From: an uncultured Thermoplasmata archaeon
GTDB lineage: Archaea; Thermoplasmatota; Thermoplasmata; SG8-5
Assembly (NCBI GenBank): GCA_964354755.1
Contig: CAYHBA010000001.1
Span: 320,706 to 384,705 of the forward strand
Direction: 5' to 3'
DNA length: 64,000 nt
In this document: piece by piece, positions 50,691 through 63,043 of the stretch
Layout of the letters: each line of letters starts with the position of its first letter
Numbering within the stretch: the stretch's first letter is position 1
Program-made: the position numbers and the translations under genes
Notes under the pieces: generated by a model
What the model saw: the letters and a program-made list of their open reading frames with translations, nothing else
What the model was told of the DNA's origin: nothing
The model's database searches: none

Positions 50691-52226
50691 TTATATTATC
50701 GGGATGAGCTTGATGTTCGGCGTGCCCCTCTCAACATCATTGACTATGCCATATATTATTGTCTTTGGCTTAATGCCAAAGATGCAGGGGCATTTGTCTA
50801 TCGTTATTATCTTGAAGTAGGTGTCGGCCATGTTCATTATCTCCTGGGTGAGCTTCAGGCCAGGCTTCAGAATTCCGATTCCCAAGTCCCTGGATATTTT
50901 TATCTTTGCGACGGCATCCAGCAAATGCTGTATGGCCACCTCGCCACCGCGCAGATATTCAAGCGTGTCGAAACCAGTGAAGTCCATGATCGGTTTGTTC
51001 TCCGAACCCCTGAGGTATTCGACATTGCTCTTCCATGTCCTGAGAGCATCGTCCTTGTTCCGTGTTCCCAGAGCCATGATGTAGGATGAGTCGCTCTTGT
51101 TCGTGAAGTAATCGGCAATGCGCACGAAGTTCTCGAACTGACTTTCCGGCAGGAATTTGTCCAGGTCTTTCTTCAGCGTTTCGGCATGGTCGCCTCCCGA
51201 GAGGACCGCAAAAATGCCCTTGTCCAGCGATATGAAATTCAGGAGAATCGGCACAACGATGGAGTGGTACTCCTCGTTGGAGACATTCTCGTTCACCTCG
51301 ATGACATTGTAGCTGCCTGCGGCATATCCGCCTCCGAGCAGTGCATCCAGGTCCCTGGTGCCAGTGCTGTAGTGATTGTCCTTATCGGGCATGGGTTCCC
51401 ACTGTTTTATATCGCCCAGGTAAATTTTGAAGGGGTCGAATGTGTTGAACCGCCCGTCGTTCAGAGTTACAAGGTAGGATGGCTGGAGTATCTTGGTTCC
51501 CCTTAGTTTCTCTATGTGAATGTTCCTGACCCGCCTGCCGTCCCTGGACTCGAATGTGTGCTTTACGACGCCGTCCACCAGGTACTCCACGTTCGTGGCT
51601 TCCTTATTCTCAAGGACGAAAATGACGTCTGCGTTGGAGCCTTCGACAAGGTCCTTCTGGATGCAGGTGACCAGCTCCTCGTTTTCCAGGCTGTATTTGT
51701 TGGTCACGCCTTCGATGCTGTCGATGATTATCATGGTCTTGTCCGGGAGGTTTGCCTCGACGCGGTCGTAAATGCGTTCTATCTCGGGCATGCGGTTCCT
51801 TTCGAGCAGAACCGTGAGCCTTGTCCTGTCCACCTTGGCCGGCGGGGCCAGGGGCTCGTCGCTGACGCTTCTCAGGAAATCCTTGGCTCGGCTGAGCTTC
51901 TCCATTGTCTCCCTGTCCGGAGTTTCGTCCCCTTCATCATCCGGAACCAGGGCTTGGAGCAGCACGCGGCTGGAGTCGATTATGCGGTTTTTCATCTCCT
52001 CCTTCTCGAGCCACGGAAATTGCTTGAACAGGGCTTCATCCGATACCCGGCTGGACAGGTATATGCTCTTCTGCGGGTCCCCAAGGTCCTCGAGGAGCTG
52101 GAGCGCCATGGTTGTTTTCCCGGAGCCGGCACCTCCCTTCACAAGCAGGGAGCGGCCGCCGGGTTTGCCGAAGAACGTTCTGAGTTCGCCGGGAATGGAT
52201 ATGTGATTGGAATGCGGCTTATTCAT
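50691..52226 (-). CDS. KaiC-like two-domain RecA-superfamily ATPase (first domain intact P-loop, second degenerate)
   Basis: Domain 1 Walker A GGAGSGKTT; domain 2 retains the GTRDLDALLGGGYAAGS KaiC-type loop without a GK[ST]. Confidence 0.75.
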   Translation of the reverse strand: MNKPHSNHISIPGELRTFFGKPGGRSLLVKGGAGSGKTTMALQLLEDLGDPQKSIYLSSRVSDEALFKQFPWLEKEEMKNRIIDSSRVLLQALVPDDEGDETPDRETMEKLSRAKDFLRSVSDEPLAPPAKVDRTRLTVLLERNRMPEIERIYDRVEANLPDKTMIIIDSIEGVTNKYSLENEELVTCIQKDLVEGSNADVIFVLENKEATNVEYLVDGVVKHTFESRDGRRVRNIHIEKLRGTKILQPSYLVTLNDGRFNTFDPFKIYLGDIKQWEPMPDKDNHYSTGTRDLDALLGGGYAAGSYNVIEVNENVSNEEYHSIVVPILLNFISLDKGIFAVLSGGDHAETLKKDLDKFLPESQFENFVRIADYFTNKSDSSYIMALGTRNKDDALRTWKSNVEYLRGSENKPIMDFTGFDTLEYLRGGEVAIQHLLDAVAKIKISRDLGIGILKPGLKLTQEIMNMADTYFKIITIDKCPCIFGIKPKTIIYGIVNDVERGTPNIKLIPII

Positions 52227-52590
52227 TCTGCATCACCTCGCGTATCCTGACCTCGGCCTCGCTGGCTTTTTTGTCCAATTCGGCTGCGTCCAGCTTATGG
52301 CTCATCAGCACAAGTATGGCCTTTCTGCCCAGGCTCCTGGTTATCATGATGCCGCTCGGGCTGGTTTCCACGCTCACCTTATGGGGCTTGTCCCAGCCGC
52401 TGCCGGTGAAAATGACTTCGGAAGCGCCGAATATGGTCGCAGAAAGCGTGGCTATTGTTTCAGCCGAGATGCCGTGAGGCAGATGCCAGGCTATTGGAGC
52501 TCCGCTGCGGGTGATGACCGCTGAAATCTCCACACCGTGCTCGCTCTCGAGTTTTTCAAGTTCCCTGTTAAGTTCGGCGACTATTGTCAT
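52219..52590 (-). CDS. Roadblock/LC7 (MglB-like) domain protein
   Basis: 123 aa; EISAVITRSGAPIAW...ATLSATIFGASE...SGIMITRSLGRKAILVLMS matches the Roadblock fold pattern; overlaps the downstream ATPase gene by 8 nt. Confidence 0.7.
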   Translation of the reverse strand: MTIVAELNRELEKLESEHGVEISAVITRSGAPIAWHLPHGISAETIATLSATIFGASEVIFTGSGWDKPHKVSVETSPSGIMITRSLGRKAILVLMSHKLDAAELDKKASEAEVRIREVMQNE

Positions 52591-52808: not shown

Positions 52809-52866
52809 AGGGTGAAAGGTTGCGGGCATGCAAATGCCTGCGATTTTGTTCAAGGCAGGTGAATGG

Positions 52867-53982
52867 ATGAGTTCCATTGTAAAAGAGGTATTGGCCCGTT
52901 CGGTCCCGGAGGTTACGCACCAGGAAGCCCCGACAGAATACCGCGTCGGAGGACAAAACGCGGAGGACGAGGAATTAGAGCGCATACTGGCAGGTCTCAA
53001 GACAAACATCAAGATTGTCGGCTGCGGTGGAGGAGGAAGCAACACCGTGAACAGACTGGTGGAATCCGGCATCCTCGGCGCGGACCTCTACGCGCTTAAC
53101 ACCGATGCCCAGCATCTCCTAACGATTCACTCCCCCCACAAGATTCTCATAGGCAAGAGGTCCACAAAGGGCCTTGGAGCCGGCGCACTTCCCCAGATAG
53201 GGGAGGAGGCAGCCAGGGAAGCCGAGGAGGAGATAAAGGCCGCCCTCACCGGAGCGGACATTGTTTTCGTCACCTGCGGCCTGGGCGGAGGAACCGGAAC
53301 TGGTTCGGCGCCTTTCGTGGCCGCGATAGCCAAGGAACTCGGGGCGCTGGCAATAGCAATCTGCACATCGCCTTTCAAAGCGGAGGGAAGCATCAGGATG
53401 GAGAACGCCGAGTACGGGCTGGAGAAGCTGAGGGCCGTGGCGGACACAGTCATAGTCATACCCAACGACAAGCTAATCGAGCTTGTGCCTAAGCTCTCGA
53501 TTAACGCCGCGTTCAAGGTGGCGGACGAGGTTTTAATGAGGTCCATAAAAGGCATCACAGAGGTCGTGACAAAACCCGGCCTGGTCAACCTTGACTTCAA
53601 TGACATTAAAACAATAATGAGGGGAGGCGGCGTGGCCATGATTGGACTTGGGGAGAGCGACAGCGAGGACAGGGCCATTGAGGCAGTGAACGAGGCCATT
53701 GACTCGCCGTTGATTGACGTGGACATTGCGGATGCCACAGGCGCACTGATAAACGTCACAGGAGGCTCGGACATGACAATATCGGAAGCCGAGCAGGTCG
53801 CTGAGATAGTCCAGTCGAGGATTAGCTCGAACGCCAGAATAATCTGGGGGGCTGCGGTCGACCCGGAGCTCGAGGGAATGATCAGAGTCATGATAGTAAT
53901 TACTGGTGTGAAATCGAACCAGATGTTCGCAAAACAGGACACCAGGAGGGGCAAGGACATAGGTGTGGACCTCATAAGGTAG
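52867..53982 (+). CDS. ftsZ: cell division protein FtsZ
   Basis: [17 protein letters not shown] and [15 protein letters not shown] tubulin/FtsZ signatures; track ORF begins at 52828, SD-preceded ATG 52867 preferred. Confidence 0.9.
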
Positions 53983-54231: not shown

Positions 54232-54246
54232 ATTTTGAGGTCTCAC

Positions 54247-55164
54247 ATGTCGCTTCTCGAAGGAATGGAAAAAAAGGAGCCTGAACAGCCCCCCAAACCG
54301 GCAGATGGGCCTCAGCCGCAGGAGTCCAGGAAAATCAAAATTACCTGCGAAGGCGAGGAGAAGAGGTCCATCACGACAGGCATCACCACCGAATACGTTC
54401 TGAAGGTCATATACGAGGGAGCCAGGCCGGACAGGCTGAAGCTCTCGGTTAAACCTATGCTGGACTCCGCGCTCGGAGAGCAAGGCGCTGACTGGGTCGT
54501 CGTTGTGGACATGAAAGAGAGGGACCAGAAAGCCTGGGAGGTCACCAGGACAGGCATCACGGAGAAAGAAGTTGATGTGACGTCCAACCAGACGCTCGGC
54601 ATGGCAATCAAAGTGACGTCCCCCAAGGGAGCCAGGTACGGAGACGCTATCAATATCGTCATGAATGTAAGCTCCGTATCGGACCCTGCGATGGCAGACT
54701 CTCTGACCACGAGAACCACAGCCAGGCAGTCAGTGCTCGCAGTCAAAACACAGATAGGCCACGAGAGAACAGTGGCGGACACGCTCAGCGTCCGCGCGAA
54801 GGACCTCGGCGTGCTTTCCATACTTTCTCCGGCGCCTCTCAGGGGATATGTCCTCGTCGAGGCGATGAACTCAGACAGATTGGAGGAAATAATCAGGGGA
54901 ATAAAGCGCGCCAGGGGGCTCGTCGACGGCGAGATGAAGCTGGACGAGGTGGAGCATTACCTCACTCCGAAGGCCCTTGTCTCGGGGATTGTCGAGGGAG
55001 ACATCGTCGAACTGGTTGCAGGGCCTTTCAAGGGAGAGAAGGCCAGGGTGCAGCACATAGACGAGGGGAAGGAGGAAATCACGGTCGAGCTGTTCGAGGC
55101 CTTGGTGCCCATACCGGTCACAGTCAAGGGCGACAGCGTCAGAGTAATCGGAAAGGAGAAGTGA
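54247..55164 (+). CDS. spt5: transcription elongation factor Spt5 (NusG homologue) with unexplained ~150-aa N-terminal extension
   Basis: C-terminal 158 aa is a canonical NGN+KOW Spt5; the N-terminal 150 aa form a novel beta-rich region in the same frame; ATG 54247 has SD GAGGT 6 nt upstream and lies 16 nt after secE. Confidence 0.75.
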   Translation: MSLLEGMEKKEPEQPPKPADGPQPQESRKIKITCEGEEKRSITTGITTEYVLKVIYEGARPDRLKLSVKPMLDSALGEQGADWVVVVDMKERDQKAWEVTRTGITEKEVDVTSNQTLGMAIKVTSPKGARYGDAINIVMNVSSVSDPAMADSLTTRTTARQSVLAVKTQIGHERTVADTLSVRAKDLGVLSILSPAPLRGYVLVEAMNSDRLEEIIRGIKRARGLVDGEMKLDEVEHYLTPKALVSGIVEGDIVELVAGPFKGEKARVQHIDEGKEEITVELFEALVPIPVTVKGDSVRVIGKEK

Positions 55165-55923: not shown

Positions 55924-58900
55924 TCAATCGCCGGCCATCGCCTTCCGGCACTTCTCGGCCCAGGGGCGCATTCCCATCCTCTCGAATTCAGCGAGAGCTT
56001 TTCCAAGTTCTTCCTTGGCCTTGGTTTCTTTGCCCGCTATCGACAAGAGACAGGCCTTTTCGAAAATCAGAATCGCCTTTTCCTTCAGGTCTCCGATTTC
56101 GGTCAGGATTTCTTCGGCTTTGTTGTACTCGTCCATGGCTCCGTTATTATCTTTCAGCTTGCTCAGTACTGTGCCCAGGACGCGCCGGCTCGCTCCTTCC
56201 TGAGACCTGGCTCCGATCTCCACAGAGGTTCGAACTGCCTTCCTGGAATAATCCAAAGCAGCATTGGCATCTCCCTGGCATGCATAAACCTCGGCCATGC
56301 CTCTCAAATTGTGAATCGAGACAAGTTTGTCTTTGATTTCGATGCAGATGTCAAGGCTCTTCCTGTAATGCTCCATGGCCTTGTCCAGGTCGCCCTTGTC
56401 TTTGAAAATCTCTCCGATATTGATTAGGGCCAGGGCCATGCCAGACTGGTCGCCCATCTTCACCCTCAGGGCATAGCTCAATTTCTGGTTTTCCAATGCC
56501 TTCTCCAGTTCCCCGAGGTCCCGTTGGGCAAGGCTGATATTCCCAAGCGAATTGGCAATGCCGACGGAATAGCCGATTTTCTCGAAAATTCTCAGGCTCC
56601 TGGTCTGGTAACCAAGCGACACCTCAAGCTCTCCCCTGTCCCAATGGGCAAGACCTATGTTGGCGAGCACGCCCCCAATCCCCGCTTGGTTTCCGATTTT
56701 TTCGTTTATCTCCAAACAACGTCTGTAATGATCCAAGGCCAGGTCAAGGTTCCCTTGGTTATGGTATACGATTCCCATGTTGACAAGGGCAGCGGCTGTC
56801 CCCTGTTCGTCCTTGATCGACTCCATGATGCTCAGGCTGTGCTTGTAATACTGCAGTGCCTTGGCGAAATCGCTATTGTTCCAGTATATTATTCCGATGG
56901 CCCGGAGAGCATCCCCGACATCCTTCTGTTCGCCTACCCTGGAGTAGACAGCCAAGGCCTCCTGCAGCCGTGCAAGGCCCTGTTCGTTATGTCCCTTTCT
57001 CTGAAGTGCACGGCCCTCTCCGAACAGCAACCTTCCCAACTCCACGTCATCTTCGCTTACGAGTTTCTTGGCGGTCCCCAAGATGCCGAGCGCGCTCTCG
57101 AAATCTCCTTTGTTGAGGAACACCTCGGCCGTTTTCCTTAACATGCGCGCTTTGGTTGTTCCGTCGGCTGCGGAATCATTGATTGTTTTATAGAAATTAA
57201 TAGCTTCGTCATAAATGCCGCTGACCACTTGGAGGTCGGCCAGCTTTTCCATGACCTCTGATTTTTGTTGCTCGGGCAAAAAGGCAAGGGAATTGCGGTA
57301 TGCATGGATGGCTTCTTGATTGAAGAACCTCTCCCTTGCAGAATCTCCGGATTTGACTAGGTATGGGCCGGCTCTCGCATCGGTTGCCTTTTGGTAATGG
57401 TATGCCAATTCACTCATTACTCTATCGGGGCTGGCCGAAGCTTCGAGGAACTCGGCAATCATCCTGTGGTATTCCTCCCTGAGTTCCTCCATGATGCCGT
57501 TATAGAGCACCTCCCTTATTTTTGTGTGATCGAAGGAATACGTCCTGGCTGAGGAATGAATCAGCCTGTGGCTGTTCTCGATTTCAGCCAAATTCCTCAG
57601 CACGGCAATTCTGCTTAGGCCTGTCAGTTTAACAATTATTTCTGCGGAGAATGTCTCTCCGATAACGGCCCCGCATTCCAGAATGTCATGCTGCTCTTTA
57701 TGCAATCTGTCCAGACGTCTCCTCACCACATCATAGACCTTTGTAGGGAGCTCCACCTTCTCAAATTTGCTCGTGAATGTCCATTCGTCCTCCTCATTCT
57801 TCACCATGGCCCCTTCCTCGACCAGCATTTTCAAAAGCTCCAAAACGAAAAGAGGCGTGCCTCCCGTTTCCGTGTGAATCTTCTCAAGGAATGCGTCCTC
57901 CACGGAGAGGCCCCGAAGGGCTGAGCACATCACTTGGCGAGTGCCCTCCATATCAAGTCTGCGAAGCTCCAATCTTTCAAAGGAATCCTCCTGGCTCATG
58001 TCCTGCATCGTTCTTTCCAGGGGATGCACCTTTCCATAGTCGGGATGTATCAGGTCCTCGGGCCTGTAAGTGGCGATAATAAACACTCTGGAAGTCCTGA
58101 TGTTGCGAGCCAGGTAATGAAGCAGATTCAGCGTTGTAGCATCCGCATTGTGAAGGTCGTCGATGAATAGAATCACCGGCCTTTCAAGCGAAAGGCGCTG
58201 GATGCCCAGGAGTACATTGTCGTATAAATTTTCCCTCTTCAGTTTGGGGTCCTCCACCAGAAATTTACCGCAATATTTACCGCTCTTGACAAATTTGGAT
58301 AGAATGGCCTCGAACCCTTCTATCTGGGCCATGTCACCCTCCCATTTTTCAATGATGGTTCCGAATTGCTGCCATGCATCCGCCAAAACCTCCTTCATGT
58401 CGGTGATGAGCAACTCGCTGAAACCGCCCTTGACCACGCAGGCCAAATGCAACCCTCTGTCTTCTTCCATTATGATTTTGAAGTCCCCATAACCCAACAC
58501 ATTCAGCTTGCCGGTCTTCGAAGATTCGTCCACCATCCGCATGGAGTCCTTTACGAATTCCCCAATGGCCCTCAGCATCGCTGAAAAGATGTCCGAATCG
58601 AGATTGATGTCACCGATCTCAGACCTTGCCATCAATAGGCCGCTGTCGTTCACGAGATATGAGGAAATCAGCAGAGGCGGGGGATCCCCCGAAATAAGAT
58701 GGGGCAGCCCCACCTCTTTCAAGGCATTTTTTATCGGCATGAGGGGTTCAAGGCTTTCAGTGAAACACTGGCCGGTCATTATCCTGAAATCCTTTGTCCT
58801 TGCCTCCTTGATAAGTTCCTGGACTATCCTCGTTTTGCCCACGCCAGCCTCACCGGAAATAAAAATGGTTGAGCCATTTCCGGCCATTGCCGATTCCATG

Positions 58901-58971
58901 GCCTTTGTCAATTTCCCCATTTCAAGCTCGCGGTCCACCAGTTTGGGCCTCAGCAGCAACCTTTTTTCCAC
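55924..58971 (-). CDS. STAND-type P-loop NTPase (AAA_16-like, Walker B DDLH) fused to a long TPR array, with a Roadblock/LC7-like insertion between Walker A and Walker B
   Basis: Walker A GEAGVGKT (residues 40-47); Walker B VILFIDDLHNAD (residues 266-277); residues ~100-205 (LVNDSGLLMARSE...FKIIMEEDRGLHLACVVKGG...ELLITDMKEVLADAW) follow the Roadblock profile; more than 12 TPR-like repeats in the C-terminal 450 aa. Confidence 0.75.
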   Translation of the reverse strand: MEKRLLLRPKLVDRELEMGKLTKAMESAMAGNGSTIFISGEAGVGKTRIVQELIKEARTKDFRIMTGQCFTESLEPLMPIKNALKEVGLPHLISGDPPPLLISSYLVNDSGLLMARSEIGDINLDSDIFSAMLRAIGEFVKDSMRMVDESSKTGKLNVLGYGDFKIIMEEDRGLHLACVVKGGFSELLITDMKEVLADAWQQFGTIIEKWEGDMAQIEGFEAILSKFVKSGKYCGKFLVEDPKLKRENLYDNVLLGIQRLSLERPVILFIDDLHNADATTLNLLHYLARNIRTSRVFIIATYRPEDLIHPDYGKVHPLERTMQDMSQEDSFERLELRRLDMEGTRQVMCSALRGLSVEDAFLEKIHTETGGTPLFVLELLKMLVEEGAMVKNEEDEWTFTSKFEKVELPTKVYDVVRRRLDRLHKEQHDILECGAVIGETFSAEIIVKLTGLSRIAVLRNLAEIENSHRLIHSSARTYSFDHTKIREVLYNGIMEELREEYHRMIAEFLEASASPDRVMSELAYHYQKATDARAGPYLVKSGDSARERFFNQEAIHAYRNSLAFLPEQQKSEVMEKLADLQVVSGIYDEAINFYKTINDSAADGTTKARMLRKTAEVFLNKGDFESALGILGTAKKLVSEDDVELGRLLFGEGRALQRKGHNEQGLARLQEALAVYSRVGEQKDVGDALRAIGIIYWNNSDFAKALQYYKHSLSIMESIKDEQGTAAALVNMGIVYHNQGNLDLALDHYRRCLEINEKIGNQAGIGGVLANIGLAHWDRGELEVSLGYQTRSLRIFEKIGYSVGIANSLGNISLAQRDLGELEKALENQKLSYALRVKMGDQSGMALALINIGEIFKDKGDLDKAMEHYRKSLDICIEIKDKLVSIHNLRGMAEVYACQGDANAALDYSRKAVRTSVEIGARSQEGASRRVLGTVLSKLKDNNGAMDEYNKAEEILTEIGDLKEKAILIFEKACLLSIAGKETKAKEELGKALAEFERMGMRPWAEKCRKAMAGD

Positions 58972-59030: not shown

Positions 59031-60461
59031 TCACAAACAGGCCCGGTTCAGGCACCGCTCCAGCGCTGTCGGGATGCATGCGATGACGTCCGTCGCCGTC
59101 ATCGACTGCCCCAGCCGCTCGAACGCCAGGTCCCCGGCTGCGCCGGAGAGGTAGGCGCCCATCCTGGCTGCGTTGTAGGGCTCCACGCCCTTGGCCATGA
59201 GACCGGCGACAATGCCCGCAAGGACATCGCCAGTGCCACCCACGGTCATCCTGGGGTTTCCAGTGCGGTTGAGCTTGTGTCTTTGGCCGTCTGAAATAAT
59301 ATCAACAGGCTGTTTGAGAAGGACTGTGGCGTCAAACTTCTTGGCCAGAACATCAACGGCTTCCGGACCGAGCTGCTTCGAACCCCCGAGGCGCGTGAAT
59401 TCCCTCGCATGGGGAGTGAGAACCGCCGGAACCATGAATTTGAAAGATTTCGCCTGTGCCAGTGCGAATAGCCCGTCAGCGTCCACGACCACGGGTTTGT
59501 CGAGGCCCTTGAGAAATCCGTTGACCGCTGCAACGGTTTCTCCGCCCCTGCCCAGGCCAGGGCCGATGAGAATCGCGTCTGCGTCCTTGGATAGTTCTTT
59601 AAGGGAGTCCAGGTGCGAAGGGGCGAGGAAGCCGCCTTCCAGGCTGCGGACAATGAACGTAGGGCTGTATGAGGCAATGGCCTGGAAGCTGGACTCGGGC
59701 GTCGCAATGGTGACCAGGTCCACGCCGACTGCCTGCGCTGCGAATGCGGATAGCGCGGGCGCACCTGTGTAAGGCCCGCCGCCAATTATGAGCAGGCGGC
59801 CGTTCTGACCCTTATGCGAGTCCTTGGCCGGAAGGGGGTAGTGGACGAATTCGCCCATACCGGTGTATTCAGCAGCATTCGCTGGGATACCGATATCGGC
59901 TGTCAATATCTTGCCGCTGTTTTTTTCAGTCATGCCCTCCTTGGAGTCATGCAAGGTCACTGTCATCAGGGGTTTGACTGCAAGGTCGGTGCCGAGGCCG
60001 CTGGGTATGTCAACGGAGATCACTCTGGCCTTGGAGGCATTGACCGCCTTTATCCAGGCCGCAAACGGTTCGCGGGGCGAAGACCTCAGGCCAACGCCGA
60101 GCATGGCATCGATTATAACAGGATGATTGGCAATGACTGAAGGCTCCGGGTCATTCAGTATTCTCACGGACTTTGGCAGTTTCCCAGCATTATCGCGCAG
60201 GAGCTGGCTCTTGGCCTTTTCCAGGGGGACTACTTGGGCAAGCGTCACATCCCGGCCCGCAAGCGCCAGATGGCAGGCCGCCACCACACCGTCCCCGCCG
60301 TTGTTCCCGCCACCGCATATGATAAGTATGGCTCCATCCGGGCATTCGCGCAACACCGCATCGGCCACTGCCTTGCCTGCGTTCTCCATGAGCTGGCTTG
60401 CCGGAACGCCCAATTCCTCGGAATTGATGTCAAGCACTTTCGATTCTGAGCAGGGCATCAT
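59031..60461 (-). CDS. nnr: bifunctional NAD(P)H-hydrate epimerase / ADP-dependent (S)-NAD(P)H-hydrate dehydratase
   Basis: YjeF-N (ICGGGNNGGDG) and YjeF-C/carbohydrate-kinase (GPGLG, GGTGDVLAG) motifs. Confidence 0.85.
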   Translation of the reverse strand: MMPCSESKVLDINSEELGVPASQLMENAGKAVADAVLRECPDGAILIICGGGNNGGDGVVAACHLALAGRDVTLAQVVPLEKAKSQLLRDNAGKLPKSVRILNDPEPSVIANHPVIIDAMLGVGLRSSPREPFAAWIKAVNASKARVISVDIPSGLGTDLAVKPLMTVTLHDSKEGMTEKNSGKILTADIGIPANAAEYTGMGEFVHYPLPAKDSHKGQNGRLLIIGGGPYTGAPALSAFAAQAVGVDLVTIATPESSFQAIASYSPTFIVRSLEGGFLAPSHLDSLKELSKDADAILIGPGLGRGGETVAAVNGFLKGLDKPVVVDADGLFALAQAKSFKFMVPAVLTPHAREFTRLGGSKQLGPEAVDVLAKKFDATVLLKQPVDIISDGQRHKLNRTGNPRMTVGGTGDVLAGIVAGLMAKGVEPYNAARMGAYLSGAAGDLAFERLGQSMTATDVIACIPTALERCLNRACL

Positions 60462-63043
60462 CTGTTGTCCTCCAGGTACATCTTCAGTATCTTCTCGTAG
60501 AGCTTGAAATCCTCGCTCCTCGCGAACGAGTCAATCACGTCCTTGGGGAGGTTCTCCAGTATATTGTCCATGGCCTTGAGCAGGCGCGCCATCTCGTCCC
60601 TGTGCCCGGGGTCCAGCATATGTTTGCCTTCGAGCATCTCGGCCTGCTTCTTCATCTTGTCCTCGACTTGGGCCAGGGCATTCTGCATCTCAGTATGGCG
60701 CGTGTCATATTCAAGCTCCTCATGGATCAGTTCCCTCAGGCGCTTATCCATGCTGTCCTTCTCCCTGAGAGTCTCTTCAAGCTCCTTCTCGAGGGCTTTT
60801 ATGCGGGCAGAGAGGCCGTGGGCCGCAAGGGTCTCGACTATCTCGGCATCCTCTATCTTCCTGGACACGTCCACGTTGAGACGGCCCCTCACCTTGGTGA
60901 GCTGCCTGTACTCCTGCTGGAAATGGCAGCCGCGCATGCTGAGTATGCCAAGCTCGAGCGCGCCGCCGTTGTTCCTGATGTCAATTATCCCGTCGAACAG
61001 CTCCTCTATCGCGGCACTGGTCATGGTGTCGTGGGCATCCCTCTCCATCAGCGTGAATGAGGTGTACTTCCTGCTAGCCAGCTTGGCGTTTATCGACTGC
61101 GCGAACGAGTAAACCGTCCTTGTATCAAACAGCCTCAGGGCCGGGGATATCACCTCGAGGACCGCGAGCGATGTCACCTGCTCGCTTATCTTCCTGAGGG
61201 ACAGGTCAATGCCGACGCCCAGGTGGGTGAGGTCCTTGGATGTCCTCACAATGCCCTCGTCTATCTCCATGCCCAGGACCTTGGAGCTCTTCTGCCCGTA
61301 CCAGTCCACTATCTGCAGCAGGCCCCTGTCGATCAGGCCTTTCCGGCTGAGGCCGTTCTCGGACATCCACTCCCCTATCGTATCGGCGTTAACCGATGAC
61401 AGTGCCAGGAGTATGGCATGCCCCTCCTTCTGGGCTTCCATGACCACGGGCTTGACATAATCGGCCGGCATCATCGAACTGGGTATCCACACGAGGAACG
61501 AGCTGCCGACCGGAAGGCCGTCCGGGGAGAGTGATTCAATACCTGGCAGGCCCATTGTGGCCTTTTCCTCGTCATGGTCGAACTTCACAAGCTCAGGTAC
61601 TTTCCCTGACTCGGGACCGTTAATCTCAAGCCCCCGGCCAGTGACTGCGATAGGAAGCCTTGCCGCGCTGAATCCCCCTCCGGAGTAGGATGTTATGCGG
61701 AATGACGACCGCACCTTTCCGTGCTCCACAGACCTTTCAATGCACATGGTGCCGTCGAATATGTCTTCGAGCATGTCCAGCTGGTCAGGGGGGTGAACAG
61801 CCCTGTTGAGCAGTACGAGCCCTCCGCATCCGGCATTCTTCAGCTTTGCCCTGAGAGAACTCAGGAAATCATGCATTCTGTCGAAGCCCTCTACGACTGA
61901 CGTGGGCGAGACAATGTCCATGACCAGCCTGACAGTCGGGAAATCCTTCGAGCTGCGGAGGGCCATGTCTATGCCCACGGCAAGATTGGTCAGGTCGTTG
62001 GACACCTTTATCGTGGACCCGGAGACCTCGATGCTGGTTATGCGCTCAGTGTGCCTGGTGTGCCAGTCCACGAATATGAAGCGTCCTGATTGATCTACCT
62101 CGCCCATGTTCACGCCAGAGACCTCAAGCTTCCTGCGCACACACACGCCCGAACAGCCCGCGCTTACTACAATCACGCAGCCGCCCTTCTGAAGGCCTTC
62201 CCTGACAAACATGCCTGCCAGTATTTCCTTCTCCACGCCGCTCGGGCCCTCCAATACAAGCGTGTCATCCTTCCCGATGCCGTTCCTGAACAGTGCGTCA
62301 ATGGCCCCGCATCCGAACCTCACTGTCCGGGCCAGGGCCCCGCCGAAAAGACCTGTAATAATGCCCAGTTCCTCGGGTATGCGGCCGAAGGTTGACAGCT
62401 CCCACTCGAAAACCGACAGTGGAAGACCGGATTTCTCGACAACAGCCGAGAGCTGGGAGACAGCCTCCTTCACGGTCGTACCCTGGGTAAATTCAATAGA
62501 GTCGAGAAGGTCCGAGACTGATTTCACGCAGCCACATTTTCTGACCTGGGAGAGTATTGCAGAGTTGCCCTCGGTGCTCTCGGCGGCAATCCTAGATAGG
62601 AGGCGCAGGAAGATCGCTCTGACTTTGCCCAGTTCGTCAAGTGCCTCGATGCTGGACTCGGGAGTCTCCTCCCCTATCTGGAAGAGCTCGGAGTATGACT
62701 TCGACAGGATGCCGGCGTTCTCCTCCCCCACCTTCTTTCTGTAATTGGCGATGGAAGTGCTAAAATATATGCCTGTCTCGACCGAGCCTATGAATATCTC
62801 GAGGAATTCCTTTATCGTAAAAATAAGCGTGCTCAGAGCTTCGCCGGTCTCTGCGTCGTCCTGTAGTCCTGACGGTTCAATTCTCAGTTCGTCAGTCACC
62901 GCGAGAAGCGTAAGGACTGGGTTCTCGCGCTTGAACCGCGATATGACATTGCCTATGTTGAGCTCAAGAAACAACGCCTTGTTGTCCTGCAGCACAGTTT
63001 CCAGGAGGCCTGCGAGCAGGCCAACGTTTGACACGCCTGCCAA
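60458..63043 (-). CDS. KaiC-like tandem-domain protein with degenerate P-loops, N-terminal helical domain and C-terminal coiled coil
   Basis: Two RecA/KaiC-like cores (RIPEELGIITGLFGGA...LVLEGPSGVEKE; GLPGIESLSPDGLPVGSSFLVWIPSS) lacking GK[ST]; C-terminal ~130 aa heptad-rich (KALEKELEETLREK...). Confidence 0.55.
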   Translation of the reverse strand: MAGVSNVGLLAGLLETVLQDNKALFLELNIGNVISRFKRENPVLTLLAVTDELRIEPSGLQDDAETGEALSTLIFTIKEFLEIFIGSVETGIYFSTSIANYRKKVGEENAGILSKSYSELFQIGEETPESSIEALDELGKVRAIFLRLLSRIAAESTEGNSAILSQVRKCGCVKSVSDLLDSIEFTQGTTVKEAVSQLSAVVEKSGLPLSVFEWELSTFGRIPEELGIITGLFGGALARTVRFGCGAIDALFRNGIGKDDTLVLEGPSGVEKEILAGMFVREGLQKGGCVIVVSAGCSGVCVRRKLEVSGVNMGEVDQSGRFIFVDWHTRHTERITSIEVSGSTIKVSNDLTNLAVGIDMALRSSKDFPTVRLVMDIVSPTSVVEGFDRMHDFLSSLRAKLKNAGCGGLVLLNRAVHPPDQLDMLEDIFDGTMCIERSVEHGKVRSSFRITSYSGGGFSAARLPIAVTGRGLEINGPESGKVPELVKFDHDEEKATMGLPGIESLSPDGLPVGSSFLVWIPSSMMPADYVKPVVMEAQKEGHAILLALSSVNADTIGEWMSENGLSRKGLIDRGLLQIVDWYGQKSSKVLGMEIDEGIVRTSKDLTHLGVGIDLSLRKISEQVTSLAVLEVISPALRLFDTRTVYSFAQSINAKLASRKYTSFTLMERDAHDTMTSAAIEELFDGIIDIRNNGGALELGILSMRGCHFQQEYRQLTKVRGRLNVDVSRKIEDAEIVETLAAHGLSARIKALEKELEETLREKDSMDKRLRELIHEELEYDTRHTEMQNALAQVEDKMKKQAEMLEGKHMLDPGHRDEMARLLKAMDNILENLPKDVIDSFARSEDFKLYEKILKMYLEDNR

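Follow-up and report, generated by a model that had tools for sequence, protein, structure and literature searches.

A conserved N-terminal extension with a predicted Ig-like domain on the elongation factor Spt5 of Thermoplasmata archaea

To our knowledge, no transcription factor other than Spt5/NusG is conserved in all life, and its archaeal form is regarded as minimal, with two domains and about 150 amino acids (aa). The spt5 gene in a 64,000-nucleotide (nt) stretch of DNA from an uncultured Thermoplasmata archaeon (assembly GCA_964354755.1, contig CAYHBA010000001.1, positions 320,706 to 384,705 of the forward strand; hereafter the window, in whose numbering all positions are given) raises the question of what has been added to this minimal factor and what the added part may do. 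The open reading frame (ORF) at 54247-55164 on the forward strand, with its ATG at 54247 and its stop codon at 55162-55164, encodes a Spt5 of 305 aa, and in this archaeon and its relatives the protein is approximately twice the usual archaeal size. The original prediction, made from the letters of the sequence, proposed that a lineage-specific domain of unknown fold, about 150 aa long, had been fused to a core transcription elongation factor. Our analysis supports the fusion, moves its boundary and assigns a predicted fold to the added domain. We consider it likely that the gene is the Spt5 ortholog carrying a conserved, translated extension of 161 residues, which would serve as an interaction platform beside the NGN domain.

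Boundaries, conservation and start site of the extension

The Spt5 part of the protein was recognized by three profile models. The Pfam NGN domain (PF03439) covers residues 164-239 (E=5.9e-15, 55 bits against a cutoff of 22.4), a single C-terminal KOW domain (PF00467) covers residues 250-281 (32 bits against a cutoff of 22.3), and TIGR00405, the NCBIfam Spt5 equivalog, matches residues 165-305 with 168.4 bits (cutoff 69.95) over profile positions 2-144 of 145. The ORF, Pfam and TIGR00405 thus agree that the open frame runs without a stop into an NGN and KOW Spt5, as first read. Solved archaeal Spt5 chains are 147-152 aa long, in accordance with the normal size of about 150 aa assumed at the outset, and they align from their own residue 2-5 to residue 162/163 of the window protein and on through residue 305. 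Based on this alignment, the canonical core comprises 144 aa (residues 162-305) and not the 158 aa first proposed, its NGN domain starts near 54730 and not near 54691, and the extra part comprises residues 1-161 (54247-54729), somewhat more than had been expected.

Canonical archaeal Spt5 proteins (P. furiosus 3P8B/3QQC, M. jannaschii 4ZN1 and T. kodakarensis 9BCT) resemble residues 162-305 from end to end at 43-48% identity and share the NGN and KOW architecture and the secE-spt5-rpl11 synteny. They differ in that the solved chains begin 1-4 residues before NGN strand 1, whereas the window protein has 161 more N-terminal residues. All the features of archaeal Spt5 that we examined, namely the NGN domain, the single KOW domain, the equivalog score and the secE-spt5-rpl11 order, were present in the gene and its locus. 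The synteny and the TIGR00405 score together argue for the gene being the syntenic Spt5 ortholog of this genome and not a specialised paralog.

The long form is shared with related archaea. In a full-length homolog search, the matches listed included over 120 proteins with lengths near 300 aa. They were 48-96% identical to the query across 88-100% of its length, and the named ones among them bear the label Thermoplasmata Spt5 or NusG. A scan with one genome per GTDB species yielded 582 relatives, from which the best 80 loci (6-kb regions) were fetched and examined; every one of these 80 species representatives has an uninterrupted frame of 270 codons or more that runs into the KOW domain. The labels of these loci include Methanomassiliicoccales, Methanomassiliicoccus sp., Methanomethylophilaceae, Ca. 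Methanarcanum hacksteinii and Ca. Saliniplasma, and many are metagenome-assembled genomes (MAGs) named simply "Thermoplasmata archaeon". A search with a Thermoplasmatota homolog (P0272), aimed at the cultured Thermoplasmatales, returned only MAG-derived or unlabelled proteins. A word-indexed homolog search with the extension alone gave only two matches, which is a sensitivity artefact, since the full-length and profile searches gave hundreds. Two contigs with a long Spt5 of the Methanomethylophilaceae type are filed under bacterial bins (L067 and L070; Dialister hominis and Bacteroidaceae bacterium), likely owing to binning contamination in human-gut assemblies.

Selection on the extension was estimated as the ratio of nonsynonymous to synonymous substitution rates (dN/dS) against the nearest genome, the Methanomassiliicoccales UBA280 genome at locus L001; in more distant pairs, synonymous sites (dS) were saturated. 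The ratio was 0.11 for residues 1-28, 0.10 for residues 29-161 and 0.03 for the core. Identity to the query among the homologs was 27-93% (median 33%) in the N-terminal part and 64-100% (median 73%) in the core. These values indicate that the extension is under purifying selection and that it evolves faster than the core. The proposed fusion of a lineage-specific domain to a core elongation factor is therefore borne out by the long form in more than 120 homologs and 80 loci and by this purifying selection, and the suggested comparison with Spt5 of related archaea found the extension in the relatives as well.

The start site is also conserved. In 37 of the 42 loci used for this count, the N-terminal sequence motif described below falls exactly on an ATG, TTG or GTG codon with a GAGG(T/G)-type site upstream. 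In the window, a Shine-Dalgarno (SD)-like sequence lies 5 nt before the ATG, so the good SD originally noted stands, while the distance from the upstream ORF is 15 nt and not 16. An upstream in-frame TTG at 54235 was considered as the start and was set aside, as the N-termini of the homologs give it no support. At many loci (within L007-L045) the motif is initiated by TTG or GTG and reads LGLFD..., always with GAGGG about 6 nt upstream; gene calls that begin at the first ATG would therefore shorten Spt5 by 25-130 residues in this large Thermoplasmata subgroup. Based on the conservation, the continuous frames, the purifying selection and the conserved start site, the sequence evidence indicates that the extension is both translated and conserved.

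Two readings that would remove the extension were weighed against these data. Translation could begin at the internal Met149 (54691), which is an in-frame ATG and would yield a product of 157 aa, near the canonical Spt5 size, and leave the upstream frame as an untranslated leader or a chance frame. However, among the 116 aligned homologs on which our conservation counts are based, 84 have L, V or I at position 149 and only 15 have M, no SD-like sequence precedes 54691, and the 148 codons upstream have a dN/dS of about 0.10 and are in frame in all 80 species. Moreover, the region before Met149 is modelled as a high-confidence domain whose last beta-strand starts at this very residue. We therefore rejected an internal start, to which we assign almost no probability, and with it the placement of the core start at this methionine.

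Similarly, a sequencing frameshift or a lost stop codon might have joined a separate upstream gene for an immunoglobulin (Ig)-like domain to a normal Spt5, a possibility raised by the original prediction. The unusual length is the sole observation in its favour. Over 120 independent proteins and 80 independent genome assemblies share this one uninterrupted frame, the TTARQS-VLAVKT motif at the junction belongs to the most strongly conserved stretches, and in the profile search the complete sequences were only Spt5-type proteins with the region at the N-terminus or large multi-repeat proteins, the rest being short N-terminal fragments on short contigs. As no homolog splits the frame, a hidden frameshift was ruled out for practical purposes.

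Predicted fold and anatomy of the extension

Two AlphaFold2 runs on 96-sequence alignments gave a mean pLDDT of 83.9 for the N-terminal part and 86.7 for the full-length protein. Residues 29-161 were modelled as a sandwich of eight beta-strands with pLDDT mostly 90-97 and a dip to 73-76 over residues 71-80. The fold, previously called unknown, is accordingly predicted as an Ig-like beta-sandwich at a pLDDT above 90. When the domain model was searched with Foldseek against the Protein Data Bank (PDB), 97 matches were obtained at E<=1e-3, and the top 50 were overwhelmingly Ig-like sandwiches with TM-scores of 0.31-0.58. They included the PapD-like domain of CEP192, N-terminal domains of GH123, the FixG-related 2R39, complement MG domains and pilins, at 5-16% identity, and a structure search of BFVD gave the same generic Ig-like picture.

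The sequence searches place the domain more closely. Of 27 diverse homologs scanned against Pfam at E<=1, 15 matched FixG_C (best E-value 7.7e-5), 13 matched NEW3 (NPCBM_assoc; 1.1e-5) and four matched Ig_VWA7 (5.3e-7). A match of the extension to IF4E in the Pfam/NCBIfam scan (E=0.04) was far below its cutoff and was dismissed as noise. The extension profile found no match among the PDB sequences at E<=10; a search of 1.84 billion cluster representatives with it yielded 950 proteins at E<=1e-3, which are Spt5 fusions with the region at the N-terminus, truncated fragments of these, and many proteins of 1,000-5,000 aa with 4-18 repeats. Pfam scans of three such giants (P0126, P0131 and P0136) revealed NEW3, FixG_C or CARDB domains, and other giants, from bacteria and a Thermoplasmata archaeon, are labelled as DUF11, membrane or TIGR01451 repeat proteins. 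A profile-profile comparison (hhalign) of the extension with the repeat module of P0126, a protein that carries NEW3 and FixG_C above cutoff, gave 96% probability and E=2.6e-9 over 115 columns.

Taken with the model, these matches identify the predicted domain as a divergent, single-copy E-set Ig-like domain of the NEW3/FixG_C type. The assignment is at the superfamily level and to no named family, because the Pfam matches of the homologs are weak and the window protein is below threshold. By sequence, its nearest relatives outside Spt5 are the repeat modules of giant surface proteins, and the domain was apparently recruited onto Spt5 from the E-set Ig-like superfamily. The NEW3 (PF10633), FixG_C (PF11614), CARDB and DUF11 modules are similar to it in their beta-sandwich fold and in the V-T-x-P-x-G-A-x-Y-G-D signature. 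In contrast, the modules of the giants are tandem repeats, mostly in large proteins, whereas the Spt5 domain is a single copy on a cytoplasmic factor. Of ten giant-type proteins looked up, two are labelled "uncharacterized membrane protein" or "repeat protein".

The extension begins with a short motif, M-[SG]-L-[FL]-[ED]-[DG], which is present in 105 of the 116 aligned homologs, always at the very N-terminus and with ATG, TTG or GTG as its start codon; no other ORF of the window contains it. It is followed by a linker of about 22 aa (residues 7-28) composed of 21% E, 20% P and 14% K, and the combined length of motif and linker varies between 8 and 43 aa across the homologs. The net charge of the linker is -2 in the window protein, equal to the homolog median (range -13 to +1). 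The motif is modelled at a pLDDT below 50 and the linker at 46-80. The earlier description of the extension as protein-like and not of low complexity therefore applies to the globular residues 29-161, whereas residues 7-28 are low-complexity, E/P/K-rich and predicted to be disordered.

Within the sandwich, the signature loop SPKGARYGD (residues 125-133) is highly conserved as S-P-[KR]-G-A-R-Y-G-D. W83 and P126 are invariant, and G45, W97, G128, G132, D133 and P147 are kept in at least 90% of the homologs. The last strand of the sandwich (residues 150-160) passes into NGN strand 1 (162-168) with a single residue between them and no linker, and this junction, with its conserved T-T-A-R-Q-S motif, is confidently modelled (pLDDT 93-96). 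The model thus suggests a stiff connection between the Ig-like and NGN domains.

Several variants of this plan were seen. Methanomassiliicoccaceae and Methanomethylophilaceae have a Spt5 of 258-291 aa that keeps the Ig-like domain and lacks the motif and linker; loci without them are L047, L048, L052, L053, L057, L064-L068, L074, L075 and L078. The PxGARYGD loop is less well kept in sequences of the Methanomassiliicoccus type, where it reads PIGSAYQD. One homolog of 406 aa (P0125) has an insert of about 100 aa within NGN, with a sub-threshold match to ribosomal L1 (31.1 bits against 32.2); this insert may be genuine or the product of a chimeric assembly. In another (P0127, with L041:3001-4068; 359-363 aa), the Ig-like domain is interrupted by a helical insert of about 55 aa.

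Candidate roles beside the NGN domain

Concerning the function of the extension, the NGN domain is known to bind the clamp coiled-coil of RNA polymerase (RNAP) and to close the DNA cleft (PMC7289017, PMC7819879). With NGN at this site and the Ig-like domain fused directly to NGN strand 1, the Ig-like domain would be held close beside NGN on the RNAP elongation complex. We infer that its likeliest function is that of a protein-protein interaction platform, for which accessory domains of NusG provide a precedent, and it might enlarge or stabilise the footprint of Spt5 on RNAP or Spt4, as proposed for the DII domain of T. maritima NusG (tmNusG-DII). The N-terminal hexapeptide, on its tether of about 22 residues, may be a short linear motif, one that either binds a partner or docks in cis on Spt5 itself. 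The net charge of the Ig-like domain has a median of -5 (range -17 to +3; 116 homologs), and this usually acidic character makes direct binding to DNA less likely.

Some observations weigh against the platform reading. The position of the Ig-like domain relative to RNAP is derived solely from chain connectivity, AlphaFold2 docks the N-terminal motif nowhere (pLDDT below 50), and the tail is dispensable in some lineages, as Methanomassiliicoccaceae and Methanomethylophilaceae do without it. The extension of the window protein itself matched no Ig family in Pfam, being below every threshold. In addition, its net charge is compatible with a local basic patch, so that contact with DNA is still conceivable.

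The last point leads to the comparison with bacterial NusG. tmNusG-DII binds RNAP and double-stranded DNA (dsDNA) and has been proposed to stabilise the complex of NusG with the transcription elongation complex (PMC5224480, PMC7819879). DII (2XHC) and the insertion in Aquifex aeolicus NusG (1M1G/1NPP) are, like the Spt5 extension, lineage-specific accessory domains next to NGN, and the Ig-like domain might similarly be a nucleic-acid clamp that keeps Spt5 on the elongation complex by gripping nascent RNA or the upstream DNA duplex. Both bacterial domains bind nucleic acids non-specifically and DII has been modelled beside upstream dsDNA (PMC5224480), and the archaeal domain has conserved basic residues (K39/R40, K127/R, R130 and R160). 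We nevertheless regard such a clamp as unlikely. The bacterial domains are inserted within NGN, in hyperthermophiles, and DII has a positively charged binding area, whereas the archaeal domain is fused N-terminally before NGN strand 1, is acidic on average and is accompanied by a tethered motif. Its median net charge contrasts with a DII binding site that superimposes on a positively charged area (PMC5224480), and the absence of any PDB match to the extension profile at the threshold given above means that no sequence similarity to DII was detected. Neither 2XHC nor 1M1G was among the top 50 Foldseek matches of the domain model, and in the full-length Foldseek comparison they align at a root-mean-square deviation of about 22 Å. 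Judged by sequence and predicted structure, the extra domain is not of the tmNusG-DII class.

Eukaryotic Spt5 also has a disordered charged stretch before NGN (PMC7819879). That region, however, is long, strongly acidic and without a globular domain, whereas the stretch found here is about 22 aa, E/P/K-rich and near neutral and precedes an Ig-like domain. In its sequence, the extension does not resemble the eukaryotic acidic N-terminal region.

The motif and linker might instead form an autoinhibitory or regulatory tail that docks in cis on the hydrophobic RNAP-binding face of NGN or on KOW, as in RfaH and tmNusG. Autoinhibition is recurrent in the NusG family (PMC7819879), and a hydrophobic dipeptide with acidic flanks sits on a tether long enough to reach NGN or KOW. 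The models, on the other hand, show no docking, with residues 1-11 at a pLDDT below 50, and some families lost the tail and yet kept the rest of the protein. We consider this tail function quite improbable.

The tail also has some likeness to the ribosomal stalk protein P1, whose tail consists of an acidic linker and GLxxLF, so that it could be imagined to recruit translational GTPases or ribosomes and thereby couple transcription to translation. MGLFDD or MSLFED with an E-rich linker is loosely similar to stalk tails, and the aP1 genes in nine related loci end in ...EEAAAGLGALFG. The likeness, however, amounts to two or three residues and is mirrored, being N-terminal in Spt5 and C-terminal in P1; the stalk motif of the lineage itself, LGALFG (in tails ending ...GLGALFG), differs from [SG]L[FL][ED][DG]; and the linker is often K- and P-rich and not acidic. 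Stalk mimicry is thus very improbable.

TFE binds the same clamp site as Spt4/5, and the two normally compete. The binding site of Spt4/5 is the clamp coiled-coil (PMC7289017). The class Thermoplasmata reportedly lacks the genes for TFE-alpha and TFE-beta (PMC4495717, PMC7289017), and the extension occurs throughout the fetched representatives of this class. The extension might therefore be tied to the loss of TFE, with the Ig-like domain, the tail or both taking over clamp control or the stabilisation of the open complex. This link is a single co-occurrence without statistical power, and the all-beta fold is unlike the winged helix of TFE, so that we give it a small chance. In a broader form, clamp control would have been rebuilt around Spt5 after the loss of TFE-alpha and TFE-beta, with the Ig-like domain, rigidly joined to NGN, and the motif making contact with a lineage-specific partner, with RNAP or with DNA at the promoter or upstream, and Spt5 would act at initiation or promoter escape or a new co-transcriptional machine would be recruited; this proposal is speculative and equally has little probability in our view. 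An interaction platform beside NGN remains the reading that we prefer.

Gene neighbourhood and wider meaning

The order of genes around spt5, FtsZ-SecE-Spt5-L11, is the usual archaeal context (Table 1). The 74-aa ORF upstream of spt5 is probably SecE, an assignment made by its position and size, as no Pfam match was found for it at E<=1e-4. The ftsZ gene, when read from its first ATG, has 59 residues before the tubulin/FtsZ GTPase domain, and its real start may be a downstream Met. The usual L1-L10-P1 genes do not follow L11 in the window, because a gene on the reverse strand (55924-58971), encoding a 1015-aa AAA_16 ATPase with a long MalT-like TPR array (a STAND-type regulator), converges on the L11 gene there. 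No P1 gene was found in the window, and nine of the 80 related loci have this stalk gene no more than 3 kb downstream.

Table 1. Features of the spt5 locus in window coordinates.
Feature	Position	Strand	Evidence or remark
ftsZ	52828-53982	+	Pfam Tubulin and FtsZ_C domains; upstream context
Probable SecE/Sec61-gamma, 74-aa ORF with C-terminal hydrophobic helix	54007-54231	+	Between ftsZ and spt5
Shine-Dalgarno-like GAGGT	54237-54241	+	5 nt before ATG; read from sequence
N-terminal motif MSLLEG, residues 1-6	54247-54264	+	Homolog alignment, start codons
E/P/K-rich linker, residues 7-28, predicted disordered, variable length	54265-54330	+	Composition, pLDDT
Predicted Ig-like (E-set, NEW3/FixG_C-type) 8-strand beta-sandwich, residues 29-161	54331-54729	+	AlphaFold2, Foldseek, Pfam on homologs, hhalign
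Spt5 NGN domain, residues 162-243	54730-54975	+	Pfam PF03439, DSSP of model, solved Spt5 chains
Linker and KOW domain, residues 244-305, with stop codon	54976-55164	+	Pfam PF00467, TIGR00405
Ribosomal protein L11 gene	55169-55648	+	Pfam L11 N- and C-terminal domains; 4 nt downstream of spt5

Further upstream, on the reverse strand, the window contains a gene for a Roadblock/LC7-domain protein of 123 aa (52219-52590), just upstream of ftsZ, and a gene for a GvpD-like/KaiC-like P-loop ATPase of 511 aa (50691-52226). The two overlap by 8 nt, which suggests an operon. A second KaiC-like ATPase, with DUF7504, is encoded at 60458-63043 on the reverse strand. Scans of the window for tRNAs and Rfam families found nothing.

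Our full-text literature searches found no description of this Spt5 extension, nor evidence for its role. In a 2021 review of the diversity of the NusG family, bacteria such as T. maritima are the only organisms for which extra domains are mentioned (PMC7819879). The long Spt5 sequences themselves are already public and are annotated simply as Spt5 or NusG.

These archaea belong to a lineage that includes human- and rumen-associated methanogens. With the conserved Ig-like domain and motif, their elongation complex, and perhaps also their initiation complex, would have a contact surface that is absent from the Pyrococcus, Methanocaldococcus and Saccharolobus (Sulfolobus) models. The extension also illustrates the apparent recruitment, into a cytoplasmic nucleic-acid machine, of a module characteristic of large surface-type repeat proteins. 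If clamp control was indeed rebuilt around Spt5, this would be an archaeal parallel to the domain accretion on eukaryotic Spt5, and the coincidence of the extension with the reported absence of TFE in Thermoplasmata may offer a concrete handle on archaeal clamp dynamics.

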